Assembly (NCBI GenBank): GCA_029262535.1
Contig: JAJCZF010000074.1
Location: forward strand, 8,395 to 72,394
Length of the DNA: 64,000 bases
From: Deltaproteobacteria bacterium
Lineage (GTDB): Bacteria; Desulfobacterota; GWC2-55-46; JAJCZF01
Direction: 5' to 3'
Shown: piece by piece, positions 20,777-62,287 of the stretch
Layout: each line of letters starts with the position of its first letter
Numbering within the stretch: position 1 is the stretch's first letter
Made by a program: the position numbers and the translations under genes
The notes under the pieces: generated by a model
Seen by the model: only the letters and a program-made list of their open reading frames with translations
Told to the model about the DNA's origin: nothing
The model's database searches: none

Positions 20777-20919
20777 AAGTCCTTCTCATAGGGTGGGCTG
20801 CGCCCACCAAATAATGTACTTTTCCTATTGGTGGGCACAGCCCACCCTACGATAGAGACTCCCGTCATAGGCATTCCCTCATTGCCCTTTCCCCCCCGAC
20901 CTGTTAAGATATCCGGCTA

Positions 20920-39033: not shown

Positions 39034-39069
39034 CCGCACAGGCACACAGGTGTGCTTATATTTCGCGGA
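39034..39069 (+). repeat. Gene-end palindromic motif, copy 1 (ccGCACAGGCACACAGGTGTGCTTATATTTCGCGGA)
   Basis: It begins at the first base after the TAG of 37495..39033. The core is the near-palindromic GCACAC-AG-GTGTGC, followed by a T-rich tail and CGCGG. Confidence 0.7.
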
Positions 39070-39406
39070 GTAAATTTTAGGCGCTGATAGTTTCATTGTC
39101 CGCGCCCAAAGTATATAGAGCAATCTTAATTTAGAAGTATCAGCTTCGTCGAAAGACGAGCTTTGTAATAAAATAGTAATACCCCCCTTCTTAATAGCTA
39201 AATGGAGGGCGGGAGATATGAAAGGCGACAGGCGAAATGCCATTGTAATATGGCCGAGCCTTTCACGGACGCGCTTATTAAAGGTACTGCCTACCGGGGG
39301 GTAACGCGGTATCTTTCGTATTACTCCAGCGTCTGTTCTCACCCGTTTCTCTCCATTTGTCTACAAATAATATTTATAATCAAAATAACCTATATAGGGG
39401 TTTGCC

Positions 39407-39490
39407 ATGAAGTACGCCAAAAGACCTGTCTCCGCGATAGCGGTCCTTTTTCTCATCTTATTATCCGGTGTGTTTAGCGCGGCCTGGGCC
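39407..39490 (+). other. Sec/SPase-I signal peptide of the giant protein (aa 1-28)
   Basis: MKYAKRP + hydrophobic core AIAVLFLILLSGVF + SAAWA|D. No lipobox Cys. Confidence 0.7.
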
Positions 39491-42400
39491 GACATAGCCG
39501 GGACGCTCACGGCCCTTGAGGGCCGGGTGGATATTTTGAGGCCGGGCGAGGATAGGGCAACCCCCGCAAAGCTCTTCGACAAGGTAAGTGTCGGAGACAT
39601 TATTAGGACAAAGAGCAAATCCAAGGCCGAGATAACCTTTGTAGACGATTCGGTCATAAGGCTTGCGGCGGGTTCGCGCCTTGAGATTCAAGAGTATCTC
39701 TTTAGTGGCGGGGAGAGAAAGAGCGGCGTGGTTAAGCTCTTTAGAGGCAAGGCTCGTTCTATAATAAAGAGGCAAAAGGGAGAAAAGGTGGGCCGCTTCC
39801 AGGTCAAGACCCCGACCGCCGTCGCCGGAGTGCGCGGTACGGACTTCTTCGTATTTCATCAGCTGGGCCTTACCGGCGTAATGGTCGTAAACGGTATCGT
39901 AGACGTATTTAACCTCGATATACCCGACGTGGTCGTTACCCTGACCGCCGGAACCGCCACAACGGTCGAGGGTGACAAACCGCCGACCCCGCCGCGCGGA
40001 GCGAGCGAAGGCGAGGGCGGTAAACATGAAGACGAAACGACGCCTCTAGAGGACGACGGCGAGGGCGGTGATGGCGAGGGCGAGGGTAGTGCGGATGAAG
40101 GCGGCTCCGGCGAAGGCACAGACGCGACAAGGATTGCCGCAATCGCGCCAAGTGGTGTTGTGGACCCGGTAGATACCGGCACCCCTGAAACCCCGATAGA
40201 GCCGGTTATCGTAGAGCCGGACCTTATACCTTATGAAGGCGAGACCGGCGACACGACCGCGCCAACGGTAAATATCACGAGCGGCCCGACCCTGATAACT
40301 ACCACAACGACAGCGGGTTTTACCGTTACGACCAACGAAGACCCAACCACATTCAGTTATACACTCGACGGTGACGTCGTAGGTGGCCTTAATCTTGTCG
40401 GCCTGGCGCCCGGTGTGCATATCTTTAGGGCCGCCGGTGCGGATGAGGCCGGCAATATCGGCTATGACTCCTACACATGGTTCTCCGGCACGGCCGGTTC
40501 GACCTTTACAGGTAATTCCTACGGCACGGGCTCAACCTTCACAGGTACCGCTCTTGCGGGTGATGTCTATATGGGAACCTCCACAGACGGCTCATGGATG
40601 ATGGATATCGCTGGCGACTGGGTCGGCCCCTCCGGCGCGACATGGAATATCGACGCGGGAGGAGACGGCTTTGACGACACCGGCCTTATATGGGAGGGTT
40701 ATTGGGTAAATCAGATGGAGGGTACATACGGTTCCCCCGTATCTGGAGTTGCACCCATGTCCGGCCCGGCAGGGCTCTTATATATTACGGAAGATTATAT
40801 CGCCTCCGGCGCGGGCACGGCTACCGGCTCGGTAGATACCGGGGCCGGAACCTTCGCGCTCGGAGTGATGGGATTCGATACATATGCGGAGATACCTCTT
40901 CTCTTCGATGCTGGCATTGATGGTACATTTCTGCACAGTAGCGCGGGCAATATCGAAGGCGATCCGGCAAGCCCTGTAGTCGGCCTCATGGGCGGGGTCG
41001 ATCCGTTATGGACCGGAACGCCGGGGGTACTTTTCATTGGTCAGTATGAAAATCCGGGCGCGAGCCGTTATTTCTCGGCCCTTTTGGAGGGCGGCACCTC
41101 GGATGGAGGAGCGTTACTTGGTTATATAGGCGGCGTATCTCCGGACGCGGAGAATATCCGTGTTCTGGCCGGTCTGCTCTACGTAAAGGACGATGGCGAG
41201 GGCGGTAATACCGCAGGATACGCGCTCTCCGATAATATAGCCGGTATATTCTACCCAGAACTCGGTATGTGGGAGACTACCGGGACTTTTTCAACAGTTG
41301 ATACCGGTCCGACTACAGCGACACCCGGAGAGCTCTTTGACGGAAGCGTCTCTATAGATCAGAATAGCGGCAACAACCCGGTCGTTGGCGATATTACGGG
41401 AACGTTGGCCTTAGAGTCTTTTTCAATAGAAGATCAGGATTCGGGCATATTAGTCGGCGCGGGCGAGGGGTTATTCACGGCCACGCCGAGCGCGTCCTGG
41501 TCTGCCAGGACGGGCGGAACTGCCACGGACGGCCCGGATAGCTCTTACTACATAACCGAGATAACCGGCACGAGCTGGGCCGGTGACAATATGGGCGGCA
41601 CCTTCGCGGGTACGGCACTTAGCGCCGACAGCATCACCGACTTTTCTGGCGACATTCAGGGCGTATACGAGGTAACGGGCAGCGGCAACTGGCAGGCCGT
41701 GATGCTCGGCACGACCGAGAGTAGCCCGATTCTCTTCGGCGGCGACGTGGACGGGGAGTTCCTCGAGGCCCAGAGCCCGCTCGTAGGCAGCGGAACGCTT
41801 ACAGGTTTTATGGGTAGCGACCTTCCATTTAATCCAGGCGGCACGACCTCTTTACTAATGATGGGTGACTATACGAATCCATGCGCGGCCCGTATAGTGG
41901 CTGGAGACCTCTCCGGTACGACCGCCGACGGCGGCACTTACCTTGGTCTAATGTTAGGGCTTGCTCCGGGTGCGGCCGATACGACATTCGACGCTATTGC
42001 CGCGGGCCTCTATATAAATCCCGATGGCGTCGGCGGTTATACCGTTGGAACCTTCCTAAACGGCAGCCCGATAGATGGCTCCTTCTTCTCTGAGCTTGGC
42101 ATGTGGTCCGCTACGATGCCGCTTGGCACATTCGCAACCGACGAGGGTGTGACTACGACGGTGCCCGGTGACCTATACGACGGCAGCCCGGAGCTATTTT
42201 ATAATGCCGTGGACGGCAGGGTCGGGGGCGACATAAATGGCCATCTCGAACTGGACTCCCTAATGGTGGACGGCATGGCCGGTCCGGTACTAATCGGCGC
42301 GGGCGGCGGCTTCTTTGATACGACACCCGGCCCCGGCGCGTGGGCGGCTACGGCGGGCGGAAGCATAGACGCGGGCAACCCGTGTGCGCCGGTCGGTTTA

Positions 42401-45400
42401 TGGGTATCCAATATAAGCGGCTCTTCGTGGGCCGGAGACGAGTTTGCGGCAACCATTTCCGGGCATTCCATAGATCAGATAAATCATACGACCTTTACAG
42501 GCGATATCTTCGGTATCTACGAGATAACCGGTAGCGGCAACTGGCAGGCCGCCACGACCGGGCGAGCTATCTCTACCCCGCTGGCCTTTGTGAATGAGGT
42601 TGGGGCCGAGATATATTCGACAACACTTCTTCACGAAGGAGCCTATACATATTCCGACGGCGGCAAGTACGAATACTCCTTCCGCGAGGACGGCAGTTTT
42701 GGTTTTGGCAATAGAAGGTTGAACGACGCAAGTTACGTAAAGGACGAATACCAGGCCGGTGGCACGTATAGACATATTACCAGCCCGCCATATAACTCCA
42801 CGACCTCGACATGGGACCCGGCTCTATTCGATACGACAACGCTGGCCGTAGCGCCCGCGCCGCTCGACGCCGGTACGGTAACTTTCGCCTTCGATAATGT
42901 CACACCGGTCGGCTCTTCGAGCGGACTTCTTAACGGTTATATGGGCGGAGTCGATTCGCTCTGGGTCGGCACCGATATAGCGGTCGATTTCGTGGGAGAA
43001 TATGAGAATACCGGCTCAAGTATCTTTTACGACCCGAATATCATAAGCCACGATTATATCACCGGCGAGGGCTCGACATACGCGGGCGGCACCTACCGCG
43101 GAATATTTGCGGGTATCGACCTCGCTACCTCGCTTGACGGAAATTTTTTAGGGATATATATAGCGCCGAGCACAGAGGTCGGTTTCCTTCACGGCTCGCT
43201 CTCCGGCGCGGCAAACCCGGCGATAGGCATGGCAGATATGACCGGACTCTTAAACAGGACACCGGTCGCACCGTCGCCTAGTCCGATCAGCCTTGACTTC
43301 GCTACCAACTTTATCGAGGGTAACGATATCTGGACAACCGGCTTTGCCGGTACCTTCGACGGTGGCGGCGCGATTGCCATACCTATGTGGGAGGGCTGGG
43401 GCAATAGCATCAGTCTTGTAGACTTTACCGCGCAAAGAGATATAGGCTGGGGCATATACGGCCTCGAGCTCTTCGGCGGATACGATACGCCTACTCCGAC
43501 ATGGACGGCCATCACGGGTGGAGAGGCCGAGTTCGGCCTGCTTAAACATAACGTAAGGCGCTCCGCCACCTACGACTATACAGATGGCAGCTCTTATTCC
43601 TATCTCTTTGACAGCCATAACGAATATCGTTCAAGAGATACCGGCGAGTCTACATTTACCTACCCCGGCGGCGGCGATACGATAACGACTAGCTATTACT
43701 CAAACGGCACGACGAAGGTTGTCGATACGCTTGCCGGTACGACGACTTACGGCGCGTGGAGCCCGGCGGCTTTCGAGCAGTTCGACCTTGAAACCATACC
43801 GGTGGTCGCGGGTGAGACGTCAAGCCTCACGACGAGCGATGAAATAGACGCGCATGATAGGAACTACGGCTTCTGGCTGGCAAGTGTTTCTGACGGAACT
43901 CTTACGGAAGGCAGGCTCGACGGAACTCTTTCGGGCGGCCATTACATGACCTATAGCTCGCTAGGCACGCTCGACGGCACGCTTTTAGGTACCATCAACC
44001 CAACACTCGGCACATTTGATTCCGCCATTGTCGGTACGCGCGCCGACACAATACCGCTTACGCATATGACCGAATTCGGGGACGCTATATATAAGACACG
44101 CCGTCAGATAGAGACCGAAACGCGTTATACGAACGGTGAGTACTATACCAGCGAGCACGACCTGTCCAATATCGAAGGCGCTTATAGCTACCATAACGCG
44201 GCTGGCACGTCTAGCTCAATGACCTATAATAACGGCGGAGATACCTTTGGTTACGACTCGGCGACAGGCCTTCGTAGCTACGGCTTCTGGGACCCGACCT
44301 CCTTTGATTTATCTACACTGGCCACGCTTCCTGTTCCTCCGGCGGGCCATTCTATCCTTGCCGAGGGCTACGAGCCGTGGGATCTCGGATGGTATATCGG
44401 ATGGCAGTGGGGTTACATGGGCGGAACCGACACGCTCTGGTCCGGTGTGGATATACCGGGTAAGATCATGGGTGAGTTCGGCGACTCCATAACGCCATAC
44501 CCCGGCCAGAATATGAACGGGGTCTTTTATCACGAAACCCTATCATCCACTAACGAGCTGGTACGCTCCGGCGACCCTGCTGAGAATATGACATTCGACG
44601 GAGGCGCATATGTCGGAGACCTCGGCGGCATACGCATCGGTAGTTCGCTCGAAGGCGCCTTTATCGGCCTCTACGTGGACCCGGCCGGTAACGCCGGCGT
44701 GCTCACCGGAGACTTTCTCGGTACGCAGTTCACCGATATAAGCCTATTTGAGATGGACGGACTCTTTAACAGGCAGCAGATAGAGGCCGGCGCTTCGACC
44801 AACACACCGGCTTCGGCCTTGAACGGAAGTCTTATAGACGACTGGTCCTTTGCTTATGGCATTCAGGGCGACTTCGCCGGGTCGGGCTCGCTTTCCAGTG
44901 GAGCTTCCGGTAGTGGCTGGGGCAATATATATACATTTAACGACCGCGTCGGAGACGACGCGCTCGATTGGGGTACGATTAGCTTTATGGACTTCGGCCA
45001 CGCCTCCTCGCCAGGGCCCGACTGGGACGCGGTCTTCGCGGGTAGTGGGCGTTTCGGTATCTATAACGCCTATACGACCTACGAGGGCAGATTAAATTAC
45101 ACCGGCGGCGGCGAGTACAGTTATTCATACAGGCACGACGGCTCCGAGGCCGTGGTACATCTCATCCGCGCCGACGGCACGACACGCGACGTAACATACA
45201 ACCCGGACGGCACGCTGGGTGTAGTGGATACGCTTCTTGGCAACTCTTCGGGTTTTTGGACACCGGGTGACGACCTGTCATTTCTGGCCCTGCCCCTTGA
45301 GCTTCCCGGTGGAGAGACGGCCTACCCCGATCCGACCGACGGACCGAGCGCGTCGGATACTGGCACGGCTAATGAAGGTTACTACCTCTTAAGTGTAGCC

Positions 45401-54400: not shown

Positions 54401-57400
54401 GAGCCGTGGGGCATCTATAAGATAGAACTCGGCGGCGACTACGCAAATCCCAACGGGGCGACAGGCTTTGAGATATCGCTCGGCGGCAGCGGCTGGAAGA
54501 ATCTCAATAACTGGCAAAACCCGAATACTTCTACCTACTTTTCGGGTGATAACTGGTATGCCGATATAACCGGTAACTGGAATACGGATGGTACTCTCGA
54601 CGGCACGATAAACGGCCGCTTCCTGACGCCCTTTGCGCTGGGCACGATAAATAGCGAGGCATGGGGTAGCTACGACACGGTGAACGCCGGTTTCTGGGAG
54701 GGGCTGGTCCTCGGCGAGTTCTACGAGACGCCGCTGGCCTTCGCCGGGATCATGGATTTTGAGGATGTGGGGACCTGGGCCGACGGGCCGAACTGGTCTC
54801 TCTTCGGCGAGTATGCCAGCGCCTTTAAAGAGGTGGGAGATATTATAGCGCGCACAGGCGGACTTGACGAGCCGTGGGACTGCGCCGCAGGCCTATGCGG
54901 ACCGACCGCGGCCCCGGTAGACGTAACGATACTGGGCGAGGTGATCGACTGGGATAACGAAGTGATGCAGGTCTTGCCCAATAACGCTTCTTATGTTTGG
55001 AATACCGAACTCTACAGCTGGAACGAAGGGCCGCAGACGAGGACGACCTTTGACGGCGGCGCATTCCGCGGTTTTGCCGGAGGCGTTCTGATCGACGACG
55101 GAGTAAACTTCTTCCAGGAGGTTGATGGATATTCGGTCGCGCTCTATATAGATCCCGAAGGCAATGTCGGTTATCTTAAGGGCGACGTGGCGGGTAACTA
55201 CTACTTTGATATGTACGGAGATGAGAGGGACAATCTTGGCGCGATAATAGAGAGTTACTCATTCTCGCTCCTAAATGCCGATGGCACCTTACAGGCCTAT
55301 GAGATGAAGACTCCGGGCAACCACTCCATAACTAGCGCGGCCAGTTTCTACAGCGAGGTCGTAACGAGCGCCACGCTGGATACCATGTTGTGGGGCGGCT
55401 TCCCGGTTGGTGGAGGCAACTTCGACGCGACCGACTATAACCCCGGCGGCGACGGATGGACACGCTACATACCGGGCGAGAGCTGGGGTATCTTTGATAT
55501 CATACTTAACGGCTACCCCGGCGAATACGATAATATGAATAACGACACCACATGGATGACAATGCTTGGCGGTTCAGGCACATTCGGCTCCAATCCGGAC
55601 GGGGTCGGCGGTTATTTTGATAACGACGGCTATTGGACTGCCTGGGTCCTTGACGGCACCGCCGTAAACGGAAAGCTCACAGGTAGCATAAGCTCCGGTC
55701 GTTGGATGACTTCGACTCATTTAGGAAATATATGGGGCGACATACTCGGCTACTATGATGGTCCCGGGAATCCGACTCCCGCCAACTGGGCCGGAAAAGC
55801 ACTTGGCGTATTCGACGGCGACTCGCTGGCCTTTAGCGGCAGGATTACTACGGAGCAGCAGGCGTGGATAACCGGCCCATGGCAGAACGGCCCGCAGGCC
55901 GGAATATTCGGTAACGACTGGGGAGAGAACTTCACCTCTGTCGGCGACGTAGGGGCATTTGCGGGTTCGCTCACTCCGCTTTGGAACTGTACGGCAGGGC
56001 CGCTCGCTTGCGGCCCGCAGACGACTAATGTGACATATATGGGTGAGATAATAGATCTTGACGCGGACCTAATTCCTGTGCTGGATTCATTTCCAAATAG
56101 GGCTAATGTCTGGAACAACGATCTTTTGAGTCACAATCTCTATAATTCTACCTTTACAACATTTGATGGAGGGTCTTTCTACGGCTTTATCGGAGGCGTG
56201 CTTATGAAAGGCCTTACAGACTCTCACGATGCCGAGGGAATAGTTGCGAGCCTCTATTACGACCCCGAAGGCAATATAGGCTACTTTACAGGCGGCCTGA
56301 ACGGTAGTTACAACTACTATATCCCGTCGTCGTATATGCCGGGACCGATAAACTATCACTATAGCGTCCTTAACGCCGACGGCACATGGACGCCGACCGA
56401 AAAGGTCGCGGCCGGGGGCCATACCATAACGAGCGCCGCGCTCTTTACGAGCGAGGTCATAACCAATCCCTATATGACGGCCTCTCTCGAAGGCTCGTTC
56501 GGCGCGGGCGAGAACGGTTATATATATGGTAAGGAACATAACCAGGAGCCGTCCTACTACGCATGGACCCGTTATGTGCCGGAACAGCCCTGGGGTCTCT
56601 TCGACATCGTCTTTAACGGTTACATGTCGAGCGGACAGGGTTATCAGAATCCGCTTGCCGAGACTACATGGCAGACATGGATGGGCGGCGAAGGACGTTT
56701 CGGATATTTCTTTGACGATGGCGCCGCAGGTTTTGATTACTGGGGCCTCTGGAGCGCGGATACGGCCTCCAGCCCGTGGGGAGAGCTTAACGAGGAGAAC
56801 TACTTCGAGTCCGGCAGTCTATCGGGTCGTTACCTGACCTTTACTCATACCGGTTCTATATGGGGCGATATAGTCGGCTACTACGAAGACCCGCTCATCG
56901 GCGGCAACCCTGAGGACTGGGCCGCGAAGTCGGTCGGAGTATTTGAGGGCGAACAGCTCGCCTTTAGCGGAGAGATATCCTTCTCCACGGGATGGAACAC
57001 AGGGCCTTATTTTGATATATTCGCCGATGACGGCACCGCAAGCGCGCTTGCTACCTATGACGAGATATGGGGTATCTCCGGCAGTACACAGGCCCCGTGG
57101 TCCTGTAGCGCCGGTTGTGTCCCGCAAAATACCGATGTGCTTCACATGTCCCAGTTGTTGGCATCGGGCGCTTATAACCAGGACGGTCCGCTCATATGGA
57201 ACTCGAACATTACCAGTTATGAGCGTTACGGTTATACATACCAGACATACGACGGCGGCTCCTTTGACGGCTTTATCGGAGGACTTCTCTTAAACGGTAA
57301 TGTGGACGCGCGTGTGGCCAATGTCTACATGGACCCTGCGGGCAACGCCGGTTATATATGGGCGGTGCTTGACGGGCGTTACGGTCTTGACTTGACCGAT

Positions 57401-60382
57401 ATTGGTATTAATACGCCTTACCGCCTCATAGAGGCGGACGGCCTTTGGCAGCCGACGCAGATGGCGACTTTTGCCGAGGTGGACTTCACACCGGCCAACT
57501 TCCAGAGTACCGGTATCGTCACCAACGCCGACATGAACGCCGGGGTATCTGGCATATTCGGCGCGGGTAACGGCATGATCGACGGCGTGGAGTACCGCAG
57601 CGGCACACCGCCGACGGCGGCGTGGACACGTTATCTCGACGGCCAGCAGTGGGGCGTCTACGACCAGATACTCGACGGCTATGACGTGACACTTGGCGGC
57701 GGTACATATTCAAATCCGCTACTCGATCCGACCTTCTCAATACAGATAGGCGGCGTTGGCGTTTTCGGCTCCATAGAGACCTCACCCTTCAACTATGTGG
57801 ACAACTGGGGCTGGTACTACGGCGAGGTAAATGACGGCCCGTGGACCGGCGGTACGCTGTTAGGAAACTACGCCGGCAGCTGGATGAGCCAGCGCTATAT
57901 CGGCGACATATGGGGCGATGTGCTTGGTTACTACGACACCTCCTTATCGCCGAACGACGGCAACTGGACGGCCAAGAATATCGGTATATTCACCGGCGAT
58001 CCGCTGGCTTTCTCCGGAGAGTCTTACGAGGCCGCCAGGTGGGAGGAGGGTCCGCTTAACGCGACCTATACCGATGTTGCGGGTTCATTTACCGACCTGG
58101 CGACGATATCTCCGAGATTACACGCGGGCAGCGTTGACGCGCCCTGGTCTTGTCCGGGCGGAGTCGGCACATGCGTACCGTCTGTTACCGATGTGCTCTA
58201 TCTCGGCGACGTGGATAATACGGTAATCCCGTATCTCGCACAGCCGCTCTTATGGAACCAGAATCTTAAGAGCTATAATATAGACCTGTTAAACGACACG
58301 ACCTTTGATGGCGGTTCATTCTCAGGCTTCATAGGCGGCCTATGGGCCGGTAATGATATCGACGCCACCGCCGTCAGCCTCTATATAGACCCCGACGGAA
58401 ATGTCGGTTGGTTTACCGGAGATCTCGCGGGCCAGTACTATATGGATATAATAGCCTTCGGCACGAGGCAGCTCCTTTATGGCGACGGACAGTGGACGGC
58501 GACCCAGATGAATAGCTTTGGCAATCACTCGATATCTAGCGCGGCGCTCTTCACCGCCGAGGTCGTTACCGACTCTACGATGGACGCCGACCTCTTCGGT
58601 TGGTTCGGCGGCGGCTCCGGTTCGATATACGCTACCGAGTATACCGATAACGCAACCTACAGCGCCGCGTGGACGCGTTATATAAACGGCGAGTCGTGGG
58701 GTATATACGATATGATACTCGACGGCTACCCGGCCGCCGGCTCTTTCACGAACCCGGTTCCGGATACGACACTGACGGCGGCGGTTGGCGGAGGCGGAGT
58801 ATTCGGAAGCCGCCCGGACGGTTTCGGCGGTTATAATCCCGAGACCGGTTTCTGGCTCGCATATATCAACGGTCCCTCGTGGCAGAATAATGTAGTCGAT
58901 ACGGATATGAGCGGCCTTTACGTTTCGGAGACGACTTACGGCACCATCGACGGACGCGTTATCGGCTACTACGATAACGCCGGTAATTGGGCGGCAAAGA
59001 GCCTTGGCGTATTCGAAGGAGCGCCGCTCGATGCATGGGCCAATATGAATGATTACCTCCAGTACTTCGATACCACCTTACAGCAGGAGTATCAGGTGCA
59101 GGCCAATCTCGGTCTGCATGGAGCGACCTTCGACTTCGTAGGGCAGTATATGGACTTTAGCGCGGGCATGCATAATAGCGTGACCTTGAATACCTTCATG
59201 ACGAGTTGGAATAATATAGACTCAAATTCTACGACATATACCGGAGACTCTTTTAAGGGTTTACTCGGCATGAGGGATACGATGAATACGGCTGAAAAAG
59301 GCGACGTAGATATAGAGATGATCGCGCTTGAGCTGACCAGCGCGGGCAATCTGGGTTTTGTCAAATTATCGGGTAGTGGCGAGAGTTACTACACGCCTGA
59401 GACGGTACTGGTACAGGGCGGAGTGACACATATACCGATAGAGCTTACCGCCTTGAACCTGTCGACCTTTGCGAGCAATGTCCTTACATTCAACTACAGT
59501 CCGACTATAAAGGTAGGCGCTTTCGGCGGCGGCGGAGCGATAACGCCTGTTGACGTTACATGGGTCGATGTGGAATACGATAACGGCGCTTTCTTCTCGG
59601 ACTACGGTCCCATCGGAGGTCTGATGGGCGGTAGCTATACGGGACCCGCGACTGGAAACTGGACGATAGATACGAAGTTAACCAATTATCTCGCATCGGA
59701 TTCGGCTATTCTCCATACCCGTACCGAAGGTACGGGAGGGTGGTCTCCGGACAGCGCCTTTACTGGCAAGACTCACGCCTACGGCGCCGAGACCGATGCG
59801 AGCGAGGCTATGACGTGGATAGCCGTAGGCGATACTATGGGCAATACCAATACCTTCAATCCCGGCGCTATTACGAAGTTCCAAGCCGTGACGACAGGCG
59901 CGTGGTTCAGGACTGATCAGTTCCTTGAGATGATCGGTGTTATAGCCGGTACTGCGAATACCGCGGCGCTCGACCAGTTAAACATACCGCATGCCGAGGT
60001 TGCTCTTATGACGATGTTCGGAGCCGGAAACGGAATCGACGTAACCCTGAATAATATGAAGTTCTACGGTTACTCGGCAGGACAAGCGCCGAAGATATTT
60101 GCTACAGAGGACGTCACCGGTAATATCACCGGGACGCCGACGACCGGCAATCCCTTTACCATTAACGCGGTAAGCGGCGGCGCGGCTTCCGCACAGTTTG
60201 AGATTCAGCAGTGGGACACCGGCGTCACGCAAAAGTGGCTCGGAACGATTGACGGCGGCACCGGCACCCTGTCGGGCGGCACCTATACCGGCCCTGTTAA
60301 CTTCACAGGCGCGGCCGCCGGAGATATTAGTACCGGAACGGGGACATTTTCAGGAACGGCAGCCGGCATAGCAACACCCTAG
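39407..60382 (+). CDS. Giant secreted repeat protein, 6,991 aa (FecR-like N-domain; repeat family unassigned)
   Basis: One ORF of 20,976 nt (3 x 6,992) with no interruption, and an AGGGG Shine-Dalgarno about 9 nt upstream of the ATG. All overlapping ORFs on other frames are short or antisense. Confidence 0.9.
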   Translation: MKYAKRPVSAIAVLFLILLSGVFSAAWADIAGTLTALEGRVDILRPGEDRATPAKLFDKVSVGDIIRTKSKSKAEITFVDDSVIRLAAGSRLEIQEYLFSGGERKSGVVKLFRGKARSIIKRQKGEKVGRFQVKTPTAVAGVRGTDFFVFHQLGLTGVMVVNGIVDVFNLDIPDVVVTLTAGTATTVEGDKPPTPPRGASEGEGGKHEDETTPLEDDGEGGDGEGEGSADEGGSGEGTDATRIAAIAPSGVVDPVDTGTPETPIEPVIVEPDLIPYEGETGDTTAPTVNITSGPTLITTTTTAGFTVTTNEDPTTFSYTLDGDVVGGLNLVGLAPGVHIFRAAGADEAGNIGYDSYTWFSGTAGSTFTGNSYGTGSTFTGTALAGDVYMGTSTDGSWMMDIAGDWVGPSGATWNIDAGGDGFDDTGLIWEGYWVNQMEGTYGSPVSGVAPMSGPAGLLYITEDYIASGAGTATGSVDTGAGTFALGVMGFDTYAEIPLLFDAGIDGTFLHSSAGNIEGDPASPVVGLMGGVDPLWTGTPGVLFIGQYENPGASRYFSALLEGGTSDGGALLGYIGGVSPDAENIRVLAGLLYVKDDGEGGNTAGYALSDNIAGIFYPELGMWETTGTFSTVDTGPTTATPGELFDGSVSIDQNSGNNPVVGDITGTLALESFSIEDQDSGILVGAGEGLFTATPSASWSARTGGTATDGPDSSYYITEITGTSWAGDNMGGTFAGTALSADSITDFSGDIQGVYEVTGSGNWQAVMLGTTESSPILFGGDVDGEFLEAQSPLVGSGTLTGFMGSDLPFNPGGTTSLLMMGDYTNPCAARIVAGDLSGTTADGGTYLGLMLGLAPGAADTTFDAIAAGLYINPDGVGGYTVGTFLNGSPIDGSFFSELGMWSATMPLGTFATDEGVTTTVPGDLYDGSPELFYNAVDGRVGGDINGHLELDSLMVDGMAGPVLIGAGGGFFDTTPGPGAWAATAGGSIDAGNPCAPVGLWVSNISGSSWAGDEFAATISGHSIDQINHTTFTGDIFGIYEITGSGNWQAATTGRAISTPLAFVNEVGAEIYSTTLLHEGAYTYSDGGKYEYSFREDGSFGFGNRRLNDASYVKDEYQAGGTYRHITSPPYNSTTSTWDPALFDTTTLAVAPAPLDAGTVTFAFDNVTPVGSSSGLLNGYMGGVDSLWVGTDIAVDFVGEYENTGSSIFYDPNIISHDYITGEGSTYAGGTYRGIFAGIDLATSLDGNFLGIYIAPSTEVGFLHGSLSGAANPAIGMADMTGLLNRTPVAPSPSPISLDFATNFIEGNDIWTTGFAGTFDGGGAIAIPMWEGWGNSISLVDFTAQRDIGWGIYGLELFGGYDTPTPTWTAITGGEAEFGLLKHNVRRSATYDYTDGSSYSYLFDSHNEYRSRDTGESTFTYPGGGDTITTSYYSNGTTKVVDTLAGTTTYGAWSPAAFEQFDLETIPVVAGETSSLTTSDEIDAHDRNYGFWLASVSDGTLTEGRLDGTLSGGHYMTYSSLGTLDGTLLGTINPTLGTFDSAIVGTRADTIPLTHMTEFGDAIYKTRRQIETETRYTNGEYYTSEHDLSNIEGAYSYHNAAGTSSSMTYNNGGDTFGYDSATGLRSYGFWDPTSFDLSTLATLPVPPAGHSILAEGYEPWDLGWYIGWQWGYMGGTDTLWSGVDIPGKIMGEFGDSITPYPGQNMNGVFYHETLSSTNELVRSGDPAENMTFDGGAYVGDLGGIRIGSSLEGAFIGLYVDPAGNAGVLTGDFLGTQFTDISLFEMDGLFNRQQIEAGASTNTPASALNGSLIDDWSFAYGIQGDFAGSGSLSSGASGSGWGNIYTFNDRVGDDALDWGTISFMDFGHASSPGPDWDAVFAGSGRFGIYNAYTTYEGRLNYTGGGEYSYSYRHDGSEAVVHLIRADGTTRDVTYNPDGTLGVVDTLLGNSSGFWTPGDDLSFLALPLELPGGETAYPDPTDGPSASDTGTANEGYYLLSVADGTLVGERMAGTSTGRYISERTLGTIDGDLLGTYDHDVDTFEVFNYGRWQKTGNLSHVADLRSETNTMAHEHVGYFDDTSSVSGSYEYTYHEDNSFGMAKLTRADGTYTQVTYSPNGRLDVVDTGGAGNTSNSWWDRGTMDLSTLATPPTVAGMTFVNLNTIDDYLIYQTSGSSLDGLMGEIPSLWTGPGVGMPITALGQYSGNYNGVFYQDFVASNDYTQGNNVVATYDGGAYVGLLGGADVSSRGVLDGLFYAIYMDPAGDSGILSSTDLAGTSYRDAAAFELDGTVTREQFATSAEVGLTPADMGFAVMYGSMTGTLTAEFDGGASLNVTPGFSASETLSIVNNATLTGQEWGIYGISLFGTMGTQTTTWSGIAMGQGDFGRVQSGAVMVDDPGYWYADVTSGTFASEAMSAELLGMFITDNKAGIIEGRMRGSYNDGLDTFQLASLGKWEALAPTFWGDITGGQFYDLNGGLVTPTALTSLTGRYAGGFVTPHFALSEGILAGDAVTIGKKLFTADVTGASDIGAVMAGHMVGVDDALTASIATIYIAPDGGGGQTGGLYQSRSINGEFQPTQIWAAGASFSETDKGPVDVAAANLATSIWTTSYIEPGIGTVTGGSLEGDFLGSGSILGDVRISTNSIYNNATHVTAPWGTFEMAIDSKGFLNPLVSSTWNGQARGWNAFGAYWDPAANAGAGGFTDDFGFWSVDMVNGNWNADGTLTAETASLFMTPYKLGIVTGDLFGVHETGVAGELGGLGVGTWESDWLAFSAILQNGATAWADGPVNGIFGDNGAGGFADIDNLWVFAGSAIAPWDCPATSCAPQSTTVNYLGMLGYDLAVISPGTYIWDSELEINDYAEPGRTTTYDGGSFLGFTGGLLSDGTVDGRVASIYIDPEGNVGYLTGTIDGVYDPATLYAPGGGDYFMMDASGPWNPTQMVSAGALGLGPANFYNNVRTSAGLTATLSGEFTGPSGSIDGAAYSPGVGEIAAWTRYIDGEPWGIFDVALDGYPGAVNPCGETTWTGFMGGEGVFGSRPDGGGGFLDNNGYYLTYASPGSWDAAKVTATLDGDFMTAETFGRISGDLIGYYDASGNWAGKALGVFDGATYGFVTGLNNSFYHFYDGDDTIWDRDSISGYFGSIASPFTIPGTPVSFMAMGKVSGIWSQTWWDNFSGTGSAWDGFIGGNRSFDNKTISGGVASFYIANDGSAGILDATLDGTIYPGSIFKVDGTDLKATEKTASGYIPANFNTYLATSAVNGEITGEFAGGTGSISTVGFLQDIAFNASGTRTQWFVNPGTAKDEPWGIYKLELGGYYTNPAAATTFDMTLGGNNWRAATDYWIMDIAGNWNADQTVDGTINGRYLNLTSLGSINSGMWGSYDTDTGGVWEGVALGTFEETPLAFSGEITFATDWDTGPWWGLYGNDGLGAFDAVDDFYGVAGSLENPWDCTAGCVPQTIDVVYMGQPCSVNNQPLIWNNDLYAFDVKWNEGAFSGFIGGALLDGAATGGVRLIYLDPDGNVGYIEGTLLGDYYGESSMIPFSADGQWVATEVSDSLGYDGVDPVYAEYLHGDLGRDPYFKTTLSGGFGAGGASGFINGVDFNGDFATYGYRGWTRYIDGEDWGIFDVIIDGYQGGGYSNPNPDSTFSGLVGGSGNFGSHFVEGPSYVKNPGYWLADVNGTVTNRNLDGTAVGTFMTREAIGPIWGDLYGYHEGAAWGGKLMGVFEGDPVAYSGELLTGGTFFNTNLSPPTESDSITGLMGSLNAINPGGSTDIDLLGEYLNPNGLRLFGADFEGTASDGTAFLGIYAGLDRQGTLDGVLGGIYIRPDGVGGHIAGTLLADDLAGEFLPDLGMWRASSANFIATDLGATAELPGDLFSGGTAFDDSEVNGLVGGDIFGNMLLIAQSVVDIDSGLLIGITGGLFGTNPAPGWTAHGGGTVNNGGLDPDDLWLAQITGSAWAAGNMDGTYSGFAMNPNEMTNFSGDLRGQYEVTGSGNWQAISIGTFGAATPLNFFAGLTPRFWMTGDFNWVEQGFLNGDTYDYSYESGTNQGFGRYAPLGVNANRVDTTFFADGTTESFDRVTGLYSSGTWNEAGGEAAMAAWYGTPDSSVPSPSAFGVEAMGGWFDIYMGSTTSLWPVTTPTPTAVPVTVLAKHIGSDWQSGEPRLIYEGARYLRNDPTWGATFNDYDGGAFRFGLVGMIEADDTIDPDIVGLYIDPAGNAGLLNGVVTGTAYTDIGMAEMAGQITPRQMAMAAEVGVLPASLDSSIYRSGISNPVSMLSGTLPGGGALDSTIYEIGSSTIVDYSGPTVVQQWGTLNYVFEAGGFANPGAATTWSATMGGYDPFGPDATGLADELGYWLADTVGGTIGDRTLRADFSGNFITPTKLGTIDGSLYGLYDTAVGEWGGRGLATYESDPLLYAGEITPILMTTSAGRRDIYNYSDGSIHIIEIMDDNTYARVVEQGTGYHRVTSYFSNGKVVELDRLTGAVTETTWNPAVDVLSTILTPPTGYTGSTLTPGALTTAAGKLDMLMGGIDSLWSGTPNIPVTMMGEYDYNSGAPYIFRDWFVDSPAFPEIGFTTYDGGDYAGAIAGGIALDESMEAHFAALYLDSSGNAGLIYDPVSGNADSSIDIFNMAGGLNPYQMATAAEVGADPNVDLYWTQSGGLGDRLAGWFPDGDTTADMSNEYYRFRTLSLTNSVTGTVPAQPWGIFTGQFKYGAATFANPGVFNTWYGGLAGMDPIGAYWTGSAFADDPGIYAADIINGNWADGSFDGEIDGWFMTPNKMGPLAGNIYGLYDELDGVWGAYTIGTWEGAPYGFVSNFNNSFYHFDNTPVILAPTATTMLDGYLGSFDSPFATPGIGVNFSVMGQGVDAGSQTWFGQFSGTGSAWDGWTGGHLSNTDDTINGIVNALYIDDVGNAGILGANFFGDLLPNEVFVASGTNLTATQKATGGYTAGLFNIYLQRGRPEGGIGGGFPGQPGYIGSPGIQGLVSVESETRWFDNGTIEPWGIYKIELGGDYANPNGATGFEISLGGSGWKNLNNWQNPNTSTYFSGDNWYADITGNWNTDGTLDGTINGRFLTPFALGTINSEAWGSYDTVNAGFWEGLVLGEFYETPLAFAGIMDFEDVGTWADGPNWSLFGEYASAFKEVGDIIARTGGLDEPWDCAAGLCGPTAAPVDVTILGEVIDWDNEVMQVLPNNASYVWNTELYSWNEGPQTRTTFDGGAFRGFAGGVLIDDGVNFFQEVDGYSVALYIDPEGNVGYLKGDVAGNYYFDMYGDERDNLGAIIESYSFSLLNADGTLQAYEMKTPGNHSITSAASFYSEVVTSATLDTMLWGGFPVGGGNFDATDYNPGGDGWTRYIPGESWGIFDIILNGYPGEYDNMNNDTTWMTMLGGSGTFGSNPDGVGGYFDNDGYWTAWVLDGTAVNGKLTGSISSGRWMTSTHLGNIWGDILGYYDGPGNPTPANWAGKALGVFDGDSLAFSGRITTEQQAWITGPWQNGPQAGIFGNDWGENFTSVGDVGAFAGSLTPLWNCTAGPLACGPQTTNVTYMGEIIDLDADLIPVLDSFPNRANVWNNDLLSHNLYNSTFTTFDGGSFYGFIGGVLMKGLTDSHDAEGIVASLYYDPEGNIGYFTGGLNGSYNYYIPSSYMPGPINYHYSVLNADGTWTPTEKVAAGGHTITSAALFTSEVITNPYMTASLEGSFGAGENGYIYGKEHNQEPSYYAWTRYVPEQPWGLFDIVFNGYMSSGQGYQNPLAETTWQTWMGGEGRFGYFFDDGAAGFDYWGLWSADTASSPWGELNEENYFESGSLSGRYLTFTHTGSIWGDIVGYYEDPLIGGNPEDWAAKSVGVFEGEQLAFSGEISFSTGWNTGPYFDIFADDGTASALATYDEIWGISGSTQAPWSCSAGCVPQNTDVLHMSQLLASGAYNQDGPLIWNSNITSYERYGYTYQTYDGGSFDGFIGGLLLNGNVDARVANVYMDPAGNAGYIWAVLDGRYGLDLTDIGINTPYRLIEADGLWQPTQMATFAEVDFTPANFQSTGIVTNADMNAGVSGIFGAGNGMIDGVEYRSGTPPTAAWTRYLDGQQWGVYDQILDGYDVTLGGGTYSNPLLDPTFSIQIGGVGVFGSIETSPFNYVDNWGWYYGEVNDGPWTGGTLLGNYAGSWMSQRYIGDIWGDVLGYYDTSLSPNDGNWTAKNIGIFTGDPLAFSGESYEAARWEEGPLNATYTDVAGSFTDLATISPRLHAGSVDAPWSCPGGVGTCVPSVTDVLYLGDVDNTVIPYLAQPLLWNQNLKSYNIDLLNDTTFDGGSFSGFIGGLWAGNDIDATAVSLYIDPDGNVGWFTGDLAGQYYMDIIAFGTRQLLYGDGQWTATQMNSFGNHSISSAALFTAEVVTDSTMDADLFGWFGGGSGSIYATEYTDNATYSAAWTRYINGESWGIYDMILDGYPAAGSFTNPVPDTTLTAAVGGGGVFGSRPDGFGGYNPETGFWLAYINGPSWQNNVVDTDMSGLYVSETTYGTIDGRVIGYYDNAGNWAAKSLGVFEGAPLDAWANMNDYLQYFDTTLQQEYQVQANLGLHGATFDFVGQYMDFSAGMHNSVTLNTFMTSWNNIDSNSTTYTGDSFKGLLGMRDTMNTAEKGDVDIEMIALELTSAGNLGFVKLSGSGESYYTPETVLVQGGVTHIPIELTALNLSTFASNVLTFNYSPTIKVGAFGGGGAITPVDVTWVDVEYDNGAFFSDYGPIGGLMGGSYTGPATGNWTIDTKLTNYLASDSAILHTRTEGTGGWSPDSAFTGKTHAYGAETDASEAMTWIAVGDTMGNTNTFNPGAITKFQAVTTGAWFRTDQFLEMIGVIAGTANTAALDQLNIPHAEVALMTMFGAGNGIDVTLNNMKFYGYSAGQAPKIFATEDVTGNITGTPTTGNPFTINAVSGGAASAQFEIQQWDTGVTQKWLGTIDGGTGTLSGGTYTGPVNFTGAAAGDISTGTGTFSGTAAGIATP
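39503..39994 (+). other. FecR-like domain (aa ~33-196)
   Basis: The pattern G.V.I.R.G......A..GD.I..GD.I.T...S.A.I.F.D.S.I.L...S.L.I, followed by VKTPTAVAGVRGTDFFV, is typical of the FecR periplasmic sensor fold. Confidence 0.6.
40001..40126 (+). other. Acidic Gly/Glu/Asp low-complexity linker (aa 199-240)
   Basis: SEGEGGKHEDETTPLEDDGEGGDGEGEGSADEGGSGEGTD, read directly. Confidence 0.8.
40250..40483 (+). other. Ig-like (bacterial Ig / HYR-like) domain (aa ~282-359)
   Basis: DTTAPTVNITSGP...TAGFTVT...FSYTLDG...LAPGVHIFRAAGADEAGN is the common surface-protein Ig-like pattern. Confidence 0.5.
40484..59039 (+). repeat. About 17-18 long (280-500 aa) degenerate protein repeats in at least four subtypes
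   Basis: In-frame (L/I/F)Y(I/V/L/M)xPxG-type anchors start at 41177, 42008, 43154, 44669, 46166, 47045, 48074, 48998, 49928, 50855, 52025, 53204, 54116, 55142, 56252, 57323 and 58379, with a degenerate one at 59327. Confidence 0.8.
59040..60379 (+). other. Distinct C-terminal region (~445 aa) ending in a Gly/Thr-rich tail
   Basis: The WTRY/WGIFD/YxDPxGN motifs stop after ~59.0 kb. The sequence becomes richer in N/Q/M/F/K and ends ..GTGTLSGGTYTGPVNFTGAAAGDISTGTGTFSGTAAGIATP. Confidence 0.5.
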
Positions 60383-60445
60383 CCACACACCACACAGGTG
60401 TGCTTCTATTTTCGCGCCACACAGGTGTGGTTTTACTTTCGCGGA
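60383..60445 (+). repeat. Gene-end palindromic motif, two tandem copies directly after the giant-gene stop
   Basis: ccacacaCCACACAGGTGTGCTTCTATTTTCGCG followed by CCACACAGGTGTGGTTTTACTTTCGCGGA. It starts at the first base after the TAG. Confidence 0.7.
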
Positions 60446-60502
60446 GAGAGTTCTTAGAGGACTGCTTGTGTCTTGCCCGCGTCTTTAATATGTAGATATG
60501 TA

Positions 60503-60543
60503 GAAAGGGACCGCCGGTATATTCGGCGGTCCCTTTCTTTTTG
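60503..60543. terminator. Strong bidirectional intrinsic terminator
   Basis: A perfect 14-bp stem gaaagggaccgccg / cggcggtccctttc with a 7-nt loop. It has a T-run on the plus side and the complementary A-rich flank for the minus side, and it sits between the convergent giant gene and the adaptor gene. Confidence 0.8.
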
Positions 60544-60562
60544 TATTATATATTGGGTGGGC

Positions 60563-61756
60563 CTATCTGAACTTTACTTCCGTTCCGTCTTCGATTGAAT
60601 CGTCCGGGTGGTTTATTATTGTGTCGCCTTCTGTTACGCCGTCCAGTATCTCCGCCGTCAGGCCGCTTCTATGGCCGATCTTTACCGGAGTAAGACGCGC
60701 GGTCTTACCTGCGACCTTAAAGAGCGCCCAGCCTTGACCTCCGTTTCTAAATAGAGCTCCGGCAGGCACGGTAAGTATCTCGTCACCCTCCCATATGATA
60801 AAGGCCGCCTCTACACGGTAGCCGTCTCCGAGTCTCGCCCATTTTTCTCGCGGGGAGCTTATATCGGTTATGACAAGGACCCTTTGTTCCTCTACTCCAA
60901 GGGCCGATACCTTTGTAAAACCGGTGGGCTCGATCACTCGCACACGGCCCTCAAGTTTGCCCTCGCCACCCCAGCGAGTGAATAGGACCTTTGCTCCCGG
61001 CCTTATCTTTACCGCATCCGCGCTTAGCACTTCTACCTCTACCTCAAGCCCGGTGGGATCGCCGATCTCGATGAGCGGATCGCCTTCCGTGACAACACCT
61101 TCGCTCTCGCGCGCTAGTCGAAGCACGCGTCCGGCGACCGGGCTCTTTACGGTTATGGCATCGCTTTCGTTCTTGCCGTTATCTCCGGAATATTTTAGGG
61201 CCGTCTTTGCTGCTTCGACCTCGTGCCTGGCTACATCAACGGAAAACTCGGCGCTCTTAAGGCGGGCGCGTGTGGCCTCGGCCTCGCGCCTTGAAGCGTC
61301 GAGCGTATCTTCGGTGACGTGTCCGTCCTTAAATAATATTGTAGTCCTTTTAAAGGCGCTCGCCGCGTAGTCGTGATCGGCTGCCGCGCTGAGGGCGTTT
61401 TCTTTAGCGGCCTTCAGGGCCGATACCGCTGATGAGATCACGGCGCGGGCCTCTGCTTCGCTCCTTGCGTCAAGTGCGCGGGCGCGTAGCGGTTCAAGCA
61501 GCACGATGGCATCGCCCTTACTGACTATATCGCCGACATCCAGCCCGATCCTTTGCGCAAAACCCGCGACCGGGGCTGAAACGACGTAGCGGTCTATGAC
61601 GCGTGTTTTGCCCTTCTCATCGACCGTGACACTCATGTGGCCGCGTATGGCCGTGGCGGTCTCGACTGTTGACGGGCCGGGCCTCAGGCCATAGATTACC
61701 GCTCCCGCGACCACGGCGATAATGACGATTATGAATATCCTTCTTTTCCAGTGCAA
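60563..61756 (-). CDS. HlyD/MacA-family periplasmic adaptor (membrane-fusion) protein
   Basis: N-terminal TM (IFIIVIIAVVAGAVIYG), a biotinyl/lipoyl-like hairpin, coiled-coil segments and beta-barrel C-domains. TTG start with an AAGGAG Shine-Dalgarno. Confidence 0.8.
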   Translation of the reverse strand: MHWKRRIFIIVIIAVVAGAVIYGLRPGPSTVETATAIRGHMSVTVDEKGKTRVIDRYVVSAPVAGFAQRIGLDVGDIVSKGDAIVLLEPLRARALDARSEAEARAVISSAVSALKAAKENALSAAADHDYAASAFKRTTILFKDGHVTEDTLDASRREAEATRARLKSAEFSVDVARHEVEAAKTALKYSGDNGKNESDAITVKSPVAGRVLRLARESEGVVTEGDPLIEIGDPTGLEVEVEVLSADAVKIRPGAKVLFTRWGGEGKLEGRVRVIEPTGFTKVSALGVEEQRVLVITDISSPREKWARLGDGYRVEAAFIIWEGDEILTVPAGALFRNGGQGWALFKVAGKTARLTPVKIGHRSGLTAEILDGVTEGDTIINHPDDSIEDGTEVKFR

Positions 61757-62279
61757 GGCTTTCTACTCCTTATAGAATGGCAAAGTTAAGAGCAAACCTT
61801 TAGCGCGTACGATAAACTTGCGTCACCTAGAAACTCTATCCGCGAAATAGGAGCACACCTGTGTGCCTTTTCCAGTGCAAGATTTATTCCTTCTTAATTA
61901 CTGACGCGTTACTACAAAAGCTGACGCTTCTACGGACTCTATTCGCGAAATAGGAGCACACCTGTGTGCCTTTTCCAGTGCAAGGCTTATTACTCCTTAA
62001 TTGTTGACGCGTTACTATAACACTTGACGCTTCTATGGACTCTATCCGCGAAATAAGAGCACACCTGTGTGCCTTTTCCAGTGCAAGGCTTATTACTCCT
62101 TAATTGTTGACGCGTTACTATAAAACCTGACGCTGCTATGGACTCTATTCGCGAAATAAGAGCACACCTGTGTGCCTTTTCCAGTGCAAGGCTTATTACC
62201 TCTTAATTACTGACGCGTTACTACAAGAGCTGATGCTTCTACGGATTCTATCCGCGAAATAAGAGCACACCTGTGTGCC
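61744..62279 (-). repeat. Tandem array: one 124-bp unit plus four 103-bp units, each with the palindromic motif, a Shine-Dalgarno and TTGCACTGGAAAAG
   Basis: The unit anchor ttttccagtgcaa occurs at 61744, 61868, 61971, 62074 and 62177. The palindrome gcacacctgtgtgc occurs at 61853, 61956, 62059, 62162 and 62265. Confidence 0.9.
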
Positions 62280-62287
62280 CTGTGTGC

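Follow-up and report, generated by a model that had tools for sequence, protein, structure and literature searches.

Three genes in a 64,000-nt stretch of a draft genome (the window; the genome assembly comprises 2.2 Mb and is 88% complete) carry a short palindromic motif at their 3′ ends, which raises the question of what this sequence is and how it came to lie there. The motif, CACACAGGTGTG, has nine matches in the window (eight exact and one with one mismatch) against 0.06 expected by chance, and none of 100 shuffled sequences reaches nine; all nine lie where an earlier note on this DNA had placed them. The note also had the motif begin at or near three stop codons, and this holds to within a nucleotide. 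In all three genes the 7–9 nt that separate the stop from the full palindrome are taken up by a partial copy of the left hairpin arm: CCGCACAG after TAG 39031–39033 (+), CCACACA after TAG 60380–60382 (+) and GCACACAGG after TAA 62288–62290 (−), for the OMP, giant and permease genes, respectively. Since these half-copies abut the stops, the motif starts 0–1 nt after the stop. The gene labels are likewise correct: a TPR and β-barrel outer-membrane protein (OMP), an FtsX/MacB-type permease and an HlyD-family protein. The motif as noted makes up no more than the 5′ module of a larger element, and the whole window is without a match in Rfam 15 at the gathering score.

The element following the OMP gene (39034–39129, +) is complete and lies directly 3′ of the TAG stop. 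It consists of the half-copy (39034–39041), a hairpin-tail unit, GCACACAGGTGTGC-TTATATTTCGCG (39042–39067), and a second CGCG box (39101–39104), and its 3′ limit is defined by a flank duplication: the last four codons and stop of the gene, TTTACAAGTATTAG (39020–39033, +), recur as TTTAGAAGTATCAG at 39130–39143 with 12 of 14 positions matching, a value reached by ~0.1% of permuted controls. The pair thus flanks a 96-nt insert in the manner of a 14-nt target duplication. Just beyond it, a terminator-like hairpin (39145–39160, +; TTCGTCGAAAGACGAG followed by CTTTGTAATA) is probably the native terminator of the OMP gene, the insert having moved it ~110 nt away from the stop. After the giant gene (6,991 aa) the element spans 60383–60491 (+), its 3′ end being approximate; directly 3′ of the stop, the half-copy is followed by two tandem copies of a 27-nt hairpin-tail unit (60390–60416 and 60417–60443) and then by the second CGCG box, whose last position is 60481. 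Between this element and the convergent hlyD gene sits a strong canonical hairpin terminator (60502–60538; 16 pairs, 10 of them GC, then TTTTTG) that is not part of the repeat family.

The permease–hlyD junction is filled by an array of five elements (61757–62287, −). Its half-copy (62279–62287, −) abuts the permease stop, and the hairpin-tail units follow at 62253–62278, 62150–62175, 62047–62072, 61944–61969 and 61841–61866 (all −), each with a second CGCG box 38 nt beyond it; tandem-repeat analysis gives a period of 103, 4.3 copies and 91% matches. Every 103-bp unit contains a Shine-Dalgarno sequence, a TTG start and a 14-codon frame, and appears, when set against the junction reconstructed from relatives, to end in a copy of the ancestral gene junction, AAGGAG-TAR-NAAGCC-TTGCACTGGAAAAG. 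Elsewhere in the window, a dimer at 11018–11073 (−) with no called stop codon adjacent joins hairpin-tail units from two subfamilies: the first is CGCGCAGTGTGCGG-AGCCAATTTCACG (~11045–11073, −), from another subfamily than the second, CCACACAAGTGTGG-TCTTATTTTTGCG (11018–11044, −), which the note had listed as a degenerate motif copy.

Genome-wide, the core motif has 205 matches. Hairpin-plus-tail units number 281 against 35 in a reversed-genome control, or about 250–300 overall, and a definition independent of the hairpin (tail plus second CGCG) returns 149 sites against 2 in the control. The units occupy 166 of 1,515 intergenic regions; nearly all matches inside genes are false positives. Each unit combines a 5–6-bp GC hairpin, whose sequence varies, with a 3′ tail, (Y)TTTATTTCGCG or GGCCAATTTCGCG, and the full element of ~75–100 nt comprises an optional left-arm half-copy, one to three tandem units, a spacer and the second CGCG box, which lies 37–39 nt downstream of the first in 198 of 294 terminal units. 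The spacer is weakly conserved and the 3′ end of the element fuzzy. Multi-unit clusters are mostly direct tandems with a 26–28-nt period, the inverted doublets (about ten) lie within a larger composite repeat, and some elements form 100–115-bp tandem arrays. At the tail-plus-CGCG sites, a mismatch-free stem of 5 bp or more is present in 130 of 149 cases (in 10 of 149 once the sequence is shuffled), and there are 58 different hairpin sequences; the stem is maintained through compensatory changes.

Comparison with relatives identifies the elements as insertions. Co-directional gaps with an element have a median length of 280 nt, and those without one 49–59 nt. The permease–hlyD gap is 531 nt here and 3–9 nt in relatives, the carA–carB gap 252 nt and 1–49 nt, and the gspE–gspF gap 140 nt and 25 nt, with identical C-terminal protein residues across filled and unfilled junctions. 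The family pattern matches 135 times here and 0–1 times in each of 30 relatives, or 126 times against 0–5 across 95 genomes of the same class, and the core-plus-tail pattern, with 64 matches in this genome, has none in 185,579 species genomes and the JGI metagenomes. As relatives lack the family and have tight junctions with the same C-termini, the elements are lineage-specific insertions onto native stop codons.

Their placement relative to genes is far from random. Convergent gaps are occupied most often (37 of 158, 23%), followed by co-directional (116 of 1,191, 10%) and divergent ones (13 of 166, 8%); the 116 co-directional gaps hold sense copies only in 64 cases, antisense copies only in 36 and both in 16. 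The note had proposed a genome-wide test of position against stop codons, and its outcome is clear: sense copies follow 128 gene 3′ ends, and the first copy after each lies within 18 nt of the stop in 97 cases (76%; 19.4 expected), with the hairpin starting within 2 nt of the stop in 53 (41%; 7.0 expected). Stop codons among the 97 are TAG in 61, TAA in 28 and TGA in 8, against 33/45/22% elsewhere (p = 1e-8), and 21 of the 38 TAG stops that abut a copy read CTAG, compared with 19% genome-wide. Roughly half of the copies that come first in a cluster are not preceded by TAR; where TAG or TAA is present, it is the stop of the gene, in the order CTAG > ATAG > GTAG.

Based on these observations, we consider it likely that the motif forms the 5′ module of a REP/BIME-type dispersed repeat that is non-coding and specific to this lineage. 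The element would be inserted DNA that has recently multiplied in the lineage and that comes to lie with its hairpin end immediately against native TAG or TAA stops; the 100–115-bp arrays would then arise through local tandem duplication. Copies would be co-transcribed in 3′ UTRs or between cistrons, and tolerated there because the hairpin is too weak for transcription termination, any effects on mRNA or translation termination being a by-product. For the spread as a whole we infer a single-strand insertion of the HUH/RayT style, 3′ of a short (C)TAR target and with no target duplication, by an enzyme that would act in trans and be missing from, or unrecognized in, the 88%-complete draft. The genome has five Y1_Tnp genes, each flanked by another hairpin (GGTGGGCTGTGCCCACC, GTTGGGTTG..., CGGTTCAGGGTACAACCCTGAACCG, AAAGGGGAC...), and none of the five is flanked by the motif family. 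Two results speak against the favored route of insertion. First, flank duplications of 13–14 nt are present at 4 of 95 sites, and elsewhere are no commoner than in permuted controls; HUH-type insertion does not predict them. Second, copy orientation correlates weakly with GC skew (r = 0.19), and a strictly strand-specific single-strand transposition predicts a stronger link. More generally, the repeat interpretation has to accommodate that no cognate transposase was found, that there is no conserved unpaired tag, and that 36 co-directional regions are antisense-only.

The precision of the stop geometry, with 53 of 128 hairpins beginning within 2 nt of the stop, could instead point to a function in RNA at gene 3′ ends, either protection from exonucleases or slowing of the terminating ribosome, which would tune the output of about 100 genes; we regard this as unlikely. 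In the half-copy class, the lowest-energy fold (predicted for window positions 62180–62292) pairs the distal arm, which places the beginning of the stem once more at the final base of the stop codon. The sense bias in co-directional gaps (64 against 36) and the preservation of the stem by compensatory changes fit this reading, as do E. coli REPs separated from a stop by fewer than 16 nt, which the part of PMC12306157 that draws on Liang, Rudd and Deutscher (2015) describes as stalling ribosomes and lowering translation. However, the predicted stems of the two main hairpin types (−4.8 to −5.5 kcal/mol) are weak and should be easy for a translating ribosome to unwind, and whole elements fold no better than shuffled sequence (z = −2.5 to +1.4). 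Mismatches in the sense strand are G-T in 23 cases and A-C in 15, an excess that is not significant and thus no sign of RNA-strand selection; one third of co-directional sites are antisense; the avoidance of TGA stops suggests a DNA sequence preference rather than termination itself; and the family is missing from all relatives examined, which argues against a conserved regulatory need. An effect of the elements on mRNA stability or translation termination is possible, and the hairpin-on-stop geometry may have been co-opted for tuning translation termination at about 100 genes.

Somewhat less probable is a spreading mechanism, run by an enzyme other than RayT, that senses the end of a reading frame at single-nucleotide precision. 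Such a mechanism would insert immediately 3′ of TAG or TAA, with neither terminal inverted repeats nor a tag and with no regular target duplication, would occasionally copy at least 14 nt of the gene end along, and might be either a mobile element that seeks out stop codons or a duplication process templated by hairpins.

That the units are weak intrinsic (Rho-independent) terminators at transcript ends is suggested by the U-rich tail (UCUUAUUU) 3′ of the hairpin, and five window copies are flagged as terminator-like by a simple consensus scan. We nevertheless judge this very unlikely: the stems have just 5–6 pairs (~−5 kcal/mol), the U tract is interrupted, and the CCAAT-type hairpin, at a predicted −9.4 kcal/mol, has a tail (GGCCAATTTCGCG) that is not U-rich. 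The 16-pair terminator at 60502–60538 indicates that the giant-gene element is not the terminator there, and comparably strong terminators follow copies on contigs C13, C23, C50 and C61. Copies also lie within the macB–hlyD, carAB and gspEF junctions, which in relatives are tight and probably translationally coupled. Weak hairpins, strong terminators downstream and copies within operons together argue that the elements are not the terminators.

Still less credible is the idea that the two CGCG boxes, at 38-nt spacing, are sites for a DNA-binding or DNA-modifying protein, candidates being a nucleoid-associated protein, a CGCG methyltransferase/restriction system or the element's own recombinase. 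Of 294 units, 198 have the boxes at the fixed spacing of 37–39 nt, both boxes are followed by similar, GAGNAAGTTTTT-like stretches, and the flanks of the two boxes show no base-pair covariation, so the boxes form no stem together; yet common descent of the copies of one element predicts a fixed spacing equally well, the spacer is poorly conserved, and no candidate protein was identified. Finally, the operator shared by the giant-gene and efflux loci that the note had offered, on which three window sites flanking those loci would bear, can be practically discarded, as about 300 units lie beside about 170 unrelated gene junctions and the palindrome varies in sequence with compensatory changes.

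For annotation, about 170 unusually long gaps between genes can be put down to the REP/BIME-type family, as can many contig breaks and several tandem arrays, and the giant-gene and efflux loci need no regulator of their own. For repeat biology it provides an REP-like family that is well delimited, lacks a tag and comes from an uncultured lineage, and a good case for studying how repeats locate gene ends, given its sharp stop geometry (41% within 2 nt), TAG/CTAG bias, modular build and clear filled and empty sites against relatives. The arrays could double as strain markers in metagenomes.

Among modular intergenic repeats, BOX elements of Streptococcus pneumoniae (boxA-boxB(n)-boxC) have a tandem module of variable number between fixed ends and are co-transcribed with their neighbors. 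The present family shares the short module in variable tandem number, whereas sequence, size and host phylum all differ and, to our knowledge, BOX elements have not been reported to abut stop codons. The MIRUs of Mycobacterium tuberculosis are 40–100-bp tandem units in operon junctions, with small frames linking the flanking stop and start codons. The permease–hlyD array resembles them in the Shine-Dalgarno sequence, TTG start and 14-codon frame of its units; here, however, the hairpin element is dispersed and takes the form of arrays in a minority of cases, and the array unit includes a copy of the host gene junction. We also considered and rejected three assignments: (i) a REPIN, in which two inverted REPs form a long hairpin, since clusters are mostly direct tandems; (ii) a DDE-derived MITE, since no terminal inverted repeats were found, the 3′ end has no counterpart of the 5′ hairpin, and flank repeats are at control level except at 4 of 95 sites; and (iii) an intrinsic terminator in the sense of a stable GC stem and U tract at transcription-unit ends, which the elements do not appear to be as judged by their sequence.

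The note had suggested a second REP-like family distinct from the RayT-type REP, and both points stand: the motif belongs to a genome-wide extragenic hairpin repeat with a classic REP distribution, and the RayT gene is flanked by GTAG-GGTGGGCTGTGCCCACC REPs. This genome also holds other REP families with their own RayT genes. REPs lie mostly in gaps flanked by convergent and unidirectional ORFs, under 20 bp from 3′ ends, and GTAG REPs often contribute a TAG stop through their termini (PMC3733652). The motif family likewise consists of short GC-rich extragenic palindromes in hundreds of copies and several subfamilies per genome, arranged as singles, dimers and clusters, prefers convergent and unidirectional gaps within 20 nt of 3′ ends, and often has a TAG stop at the element end. 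Unlike REP/BIME systems (GTAG/CGTC, REPINs, RayT), it has a shorter palindrome (14–16 nt, the short end of the range for high-copy extragenic palindromes of ~20–40 bp), no conserved unpaired GTAG/CGTC tag (positional information upstream of the hairpin is near zero), mostly direct tandems instead of inverted doublets, and no RayT gene flanked by the same repeat; its extra features are a 12-nt tail, conserved but not palindromic, and a second CGCG box at the fixed distance of 38 nt. As in the E. coli REPs treated in that part of PMC12306157, a hairpin immediately 3′ of the stop would be met by the terminating ribosome, although the E. coli stems are far longer and more stable. Untagged REP-like families are known from M. 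tuberculosis, D. radiodurans, Bordetella, Brucella and cyanobacteria (PMC3733652); they too are high-copy, small palindromic intergenic repeats with no terminal tag and no known mobilizing enzyme, but share no sequence relationship with the motif family, which is found in one genome of 185,579 species representatives. We conclude that the motif belongs to a new, untagged, REP/BIME-like family whose behavior is of a kind already known.

The 12-mer CACACAGGTGTG occurs nine times in the window, as compared with 0.06 copies expected (one mismatch allowed), and every copy is followed by a (C/G)YTTATTTCGCG-like sequence. With Tandem Repeats Finder, positions 60390–60443 come out as a 27-nt doublet and 61833–62279 as an array of 4.3 copies of a 103-nt unit. 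The three stop codons concerned, TAG at 39031–33, TAG at 60380–82 and TAA at 62288–90 (minus strand), terminate long ORFs: the outer-membrane protein gene, the giant gene and the permease gene, respectively; the Pfam labels of neighbouring genes are TPR/beta-barrel outer-membrane protein, FtsX/MacB-type permease and HlyD-family protein. At all three stops, the 7–9 nt between the stop and the full palindrome are occupied by an incomplete repeat of the hairpin's left arm, and since this half-copy bridges each stop to the palindrome, the observation in the earlier note that a nine-copy motif starts at three gene ends is confirmed in all details. An Rfam scan of the whole window returned no match. 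The last 14 nt of the outer-membrane gene (39020–39033) recur at 39130–39143 with 12 of 14 positions identical, and the 96-nt insert that they enclose provides one exact element length, 96 nt. The hairpin at 39145–39160, behind the second 14-nt copy, is probably the original terminator of this gene.

The motif is part of a family dispersed through the draft genome (2.2 Mb, 87 contigs, 88% complete, 51% GC; the window is C74:8395–72394). The core occurs 205 times, a search for a perfect hairpin plus tail yields 281 units versus 35 in the reversed genome, and the union of both searches comprises 336 units, which are spread over 166 of the 1,515 intergenic regions. The tail ATTTCGCG is common to the hairpin subfamilies, which include GCACACAGGTGTGC, CCACACAGGTGTGG, CCGCACAGTGTGCGG, CCGGGCAGTGCCCGG, ACAGRCGGTCGYCTGT and others. 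With sites defined independently of the hairpin, as tail plus second CGCG, we found 149 versus 2 in the control; 130 of them have just upstream a perfect stem of 5 bp or longer (10 after shuffling), and 58 different hairpin sequences occur. It is the stem that is conserved rather than its sequence. Conservation sets in abruptly at the hairpin, extends beyond the tail and tapers about 10 nt past the second CGCG, which in 198 of 294 terminal units lies exactly 37–39 nt after the CGCG of the tail; one to three hairpin-tail units can precede this spacer. Pairing of the two CGCG boxes into a stem is ruled out, since their flanks lack covariation and pair as expected from the marginals; RNAalifold gave no consensus structure for the elements, and whole elements fold no better than shuffles.

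Intergenic gaps have a mosaic make-up to which several repeat families contribute. A module (T)GTCATTCTGAGCGAAGCGAAGAATCTC often stands directly behind the second CGCG box (e.g. C69:24000–24030 and C59:25170–25200) and may be followed by another hairpin-tail unit. A separate 98-nt palindromic family (...GGGATAAAAAATAAAAGACTCGACGTACGGACGTACGACTCG...CCCGCCTTGATTCAGGAAAAAATCTCTAA; e.g. C51:18958–19055), with at least 30 copies in the genome and none in the window, often lies next to hairpin-tail units arranged as an inverted doublet and is often found at contig ends.

To place the elements relative to genes, we used our own simple codon-hexamer caller, which is heuristic (1,913 genes, 87% coding). 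Apparent genic matches were false positives or over-extended starts, and the sole real element overlapping a gene does so at its 3' end. Elements occupy 37 of 158 convergent, 116 of 1,191 co-directional and 13 of 166 divergent regions, and the co-directional regions hold sense copies only (64), antisense copies only (36) or both (16; p = 0.007). The association with gene ends, noticed earlier at three genes, is strongly non-random genome-wide: at the 128 gene 3' ends with a sense copy, the first such copy lies within 18 nt of the stop in 97 cases (19.4 expected), and in 53 the hairpin begins no more than 2 nt from it (7.0 expected).

Stop codon usage at these 97 genes (TAG 61, TAA 28, TGA 8) departs from that elsewhere (33/45/22%; p = 1e-8), and CTAG is present at 21 of 38 abutting TAG stops as compared with 19% of other TAG stops. 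If TAG were part of the element and landed in random frames, genes read into the element should be roughly twice as numerous as genes ending at it, but one read-in gene was found; because ORFs almost never run into the element, the TAR is the in-frame stop codon of the gene itself and not a randomly framed tag. Recoding hairpins of the pyrrolysine or selenocysteine type are ruled out as well: TAG is a common stop, TAA sites are also used, and the downstream frames consist of element sequence. TAG accounts for 35% of called stops (650/1,861), which is high for 51% GC, and element-bearing genes supply only 61 of these. A strand-specific G–T excess, sought as a sign of RNA function, was not significant.

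Comparison with related genomes indicates that the elements are recent, lineage-specific insertions. The median co-directional gap is 280 nt with elements versus 49–59 nt without. The permease–hlyD gap measures 3–9 nt in four related genomes and 531 nt here, with both C-termini reading ...VLKTKE; carA–carB measures 1–49 nt in relatives and 252 nt here, with C-termini that coincide to within 2 aa; and gspE–gspF measures 25 nt and 140 nt, with the C-terminus at the same residue. At all three junctions the stop codon differs in identity from that of the relatives. The motif has 135 matches here versus 0–1 in each of 30 relatives from the same family or order, where the tail has at most 8 (control level) versus 78 here, and in a comparison with 95 genomes of the class the motif counts are 126 versus 0–5. 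The exact core-plus-tail pattern, with 64 matches in this genome, has none in 185,579 species genomes or the JGI metagenomes. When the pattern was relaxed to tail-N-CCGCG, 74 single matches appeared in unrelated taxa, about chance level; the sensitivity of this pattern is low, as this genome itself yields only 4. Exact-protein look-up found no other assembly of the species.

The permease–hlyD array (61757–62287, minus strand) suggests how a tight junction may have accommodated such insertions. Each 103-nt unit closes with AAGGAG-TAA-TAAGCC-TTGCACTGGAAAAG, and the last unit with AAGGAG-TAG-AAAGCC-TTG..., which continues into hlyD. Set against the junction in relatives (e.g. TAG-AAAGTTTCC-ATG in the related genome G001), the unit end is identifiable on sequence grounds as a duplicate of the ancestral junction: the last two permease codons (K E), the stop, a short spacer and the first 14 nt of hlyD. 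Those two codons double as the Shine-Dalgarno sequence of hlyD. An element placed right behind the permease stop would part hlyD from its Shine-Dalgarno sequence, and the duplicated junction would give it back. In each unit, the Shine-Dalgarno sequence AAGGAG and 9 nt of spacer are therefore followed by a TTG-initiated frame of 14 codons (MHWKRHTGVLLFRG), which crosses the hairpin and ends 3 nt past the tail, at a TAG. Such frames are a side effect of junction copying, in which copies of the hlyD translation start were joined to element sequence; they might serve as decoys or as coupling mini-ORFs. A CRISPR-like array is ruled out, the "spacers" being near-identical to each other and to the host junction.

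As to how the elements spread, we found neither terminal inverted repeats nor a regular target-site duplication, one element junction is precise and lies next to (C)TAR, a preferred short sequence, and the hairpin is subterminal; because of these features, the elements appear closer to HUH/Y1 single-strand elements and to REPs than to MITEs of the DDE type. The genome encodes five Y1_Tnp (RayT/IS200-like) proteins, and CGGTTCAGGGTACAACCCTGAACCG, common to the loci at C9:7475–7969 and C40:4498–4992, also stands beside several stop-hugging elements. Several observations speak against such spread, however: all five genes, including those on C17 and C83, are bordered by other hairpin families of their own, which in the window are classic GTAG-GGTGGGCTGTGCCCACC REPs (19634–19659, 20233–20258, 20784–20810 and 20828–20860); TAR is missing before half of the first copies; one in three co-directional sites is antisense; the replication-strand bias, seen as a link to GC skew, is weak; and four sites carry 13–14-nt flank duplications, a flank repeat being present at 4 of 95 stop-abutting elements.

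Sequence evidence argues against the suggestion that the motif is a weak terminator. The main hairpins are weak (-4.8 to -5.5 kcal/mol), a canonical 16-pair terminator follows 60 nt past the giant-gene copy, copies on other contigs also have strong terminators downstream, and some copies lie in gene junctions with tight spacing in relatives, where an efficient terminator would cut the operon. An operator shared by the giant-gene and efflux loci, also proposed earlier, is excluded by the roughly 170 unrelated occupied loci and the variable palindrome. The 16-pair terminator past the giant-gene copy, a perfect hairpin at 60502–60538 in the gap that separates the giant gene from the convergent hlyD, has T runs to one side and an A-rich stretch to the other and is likely to be bidirectional.

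Finally, the distribution at gene ends, including termini that coincide with TAG stops, resembles that described for GTAG and CGTC REPs, and untagged REP-like families are already acknowledged (PMC3733652); on these grounds, we class the elements as a new, untagged family of the REP/BIME kind. E. coli REPs no more than 15 nt from a stop can stall ribosomes, according to Liang et al. 2015 as cited in PMC12306157; a similar effect of the stop-adjacent elements here is possible but doubtful, since their stems are so weak. The family is distinguished by its modular architecture, hairpin-tail(n) plus CGCG-38-CGCG, and by a stop-codon geometry of unusual sharpness.
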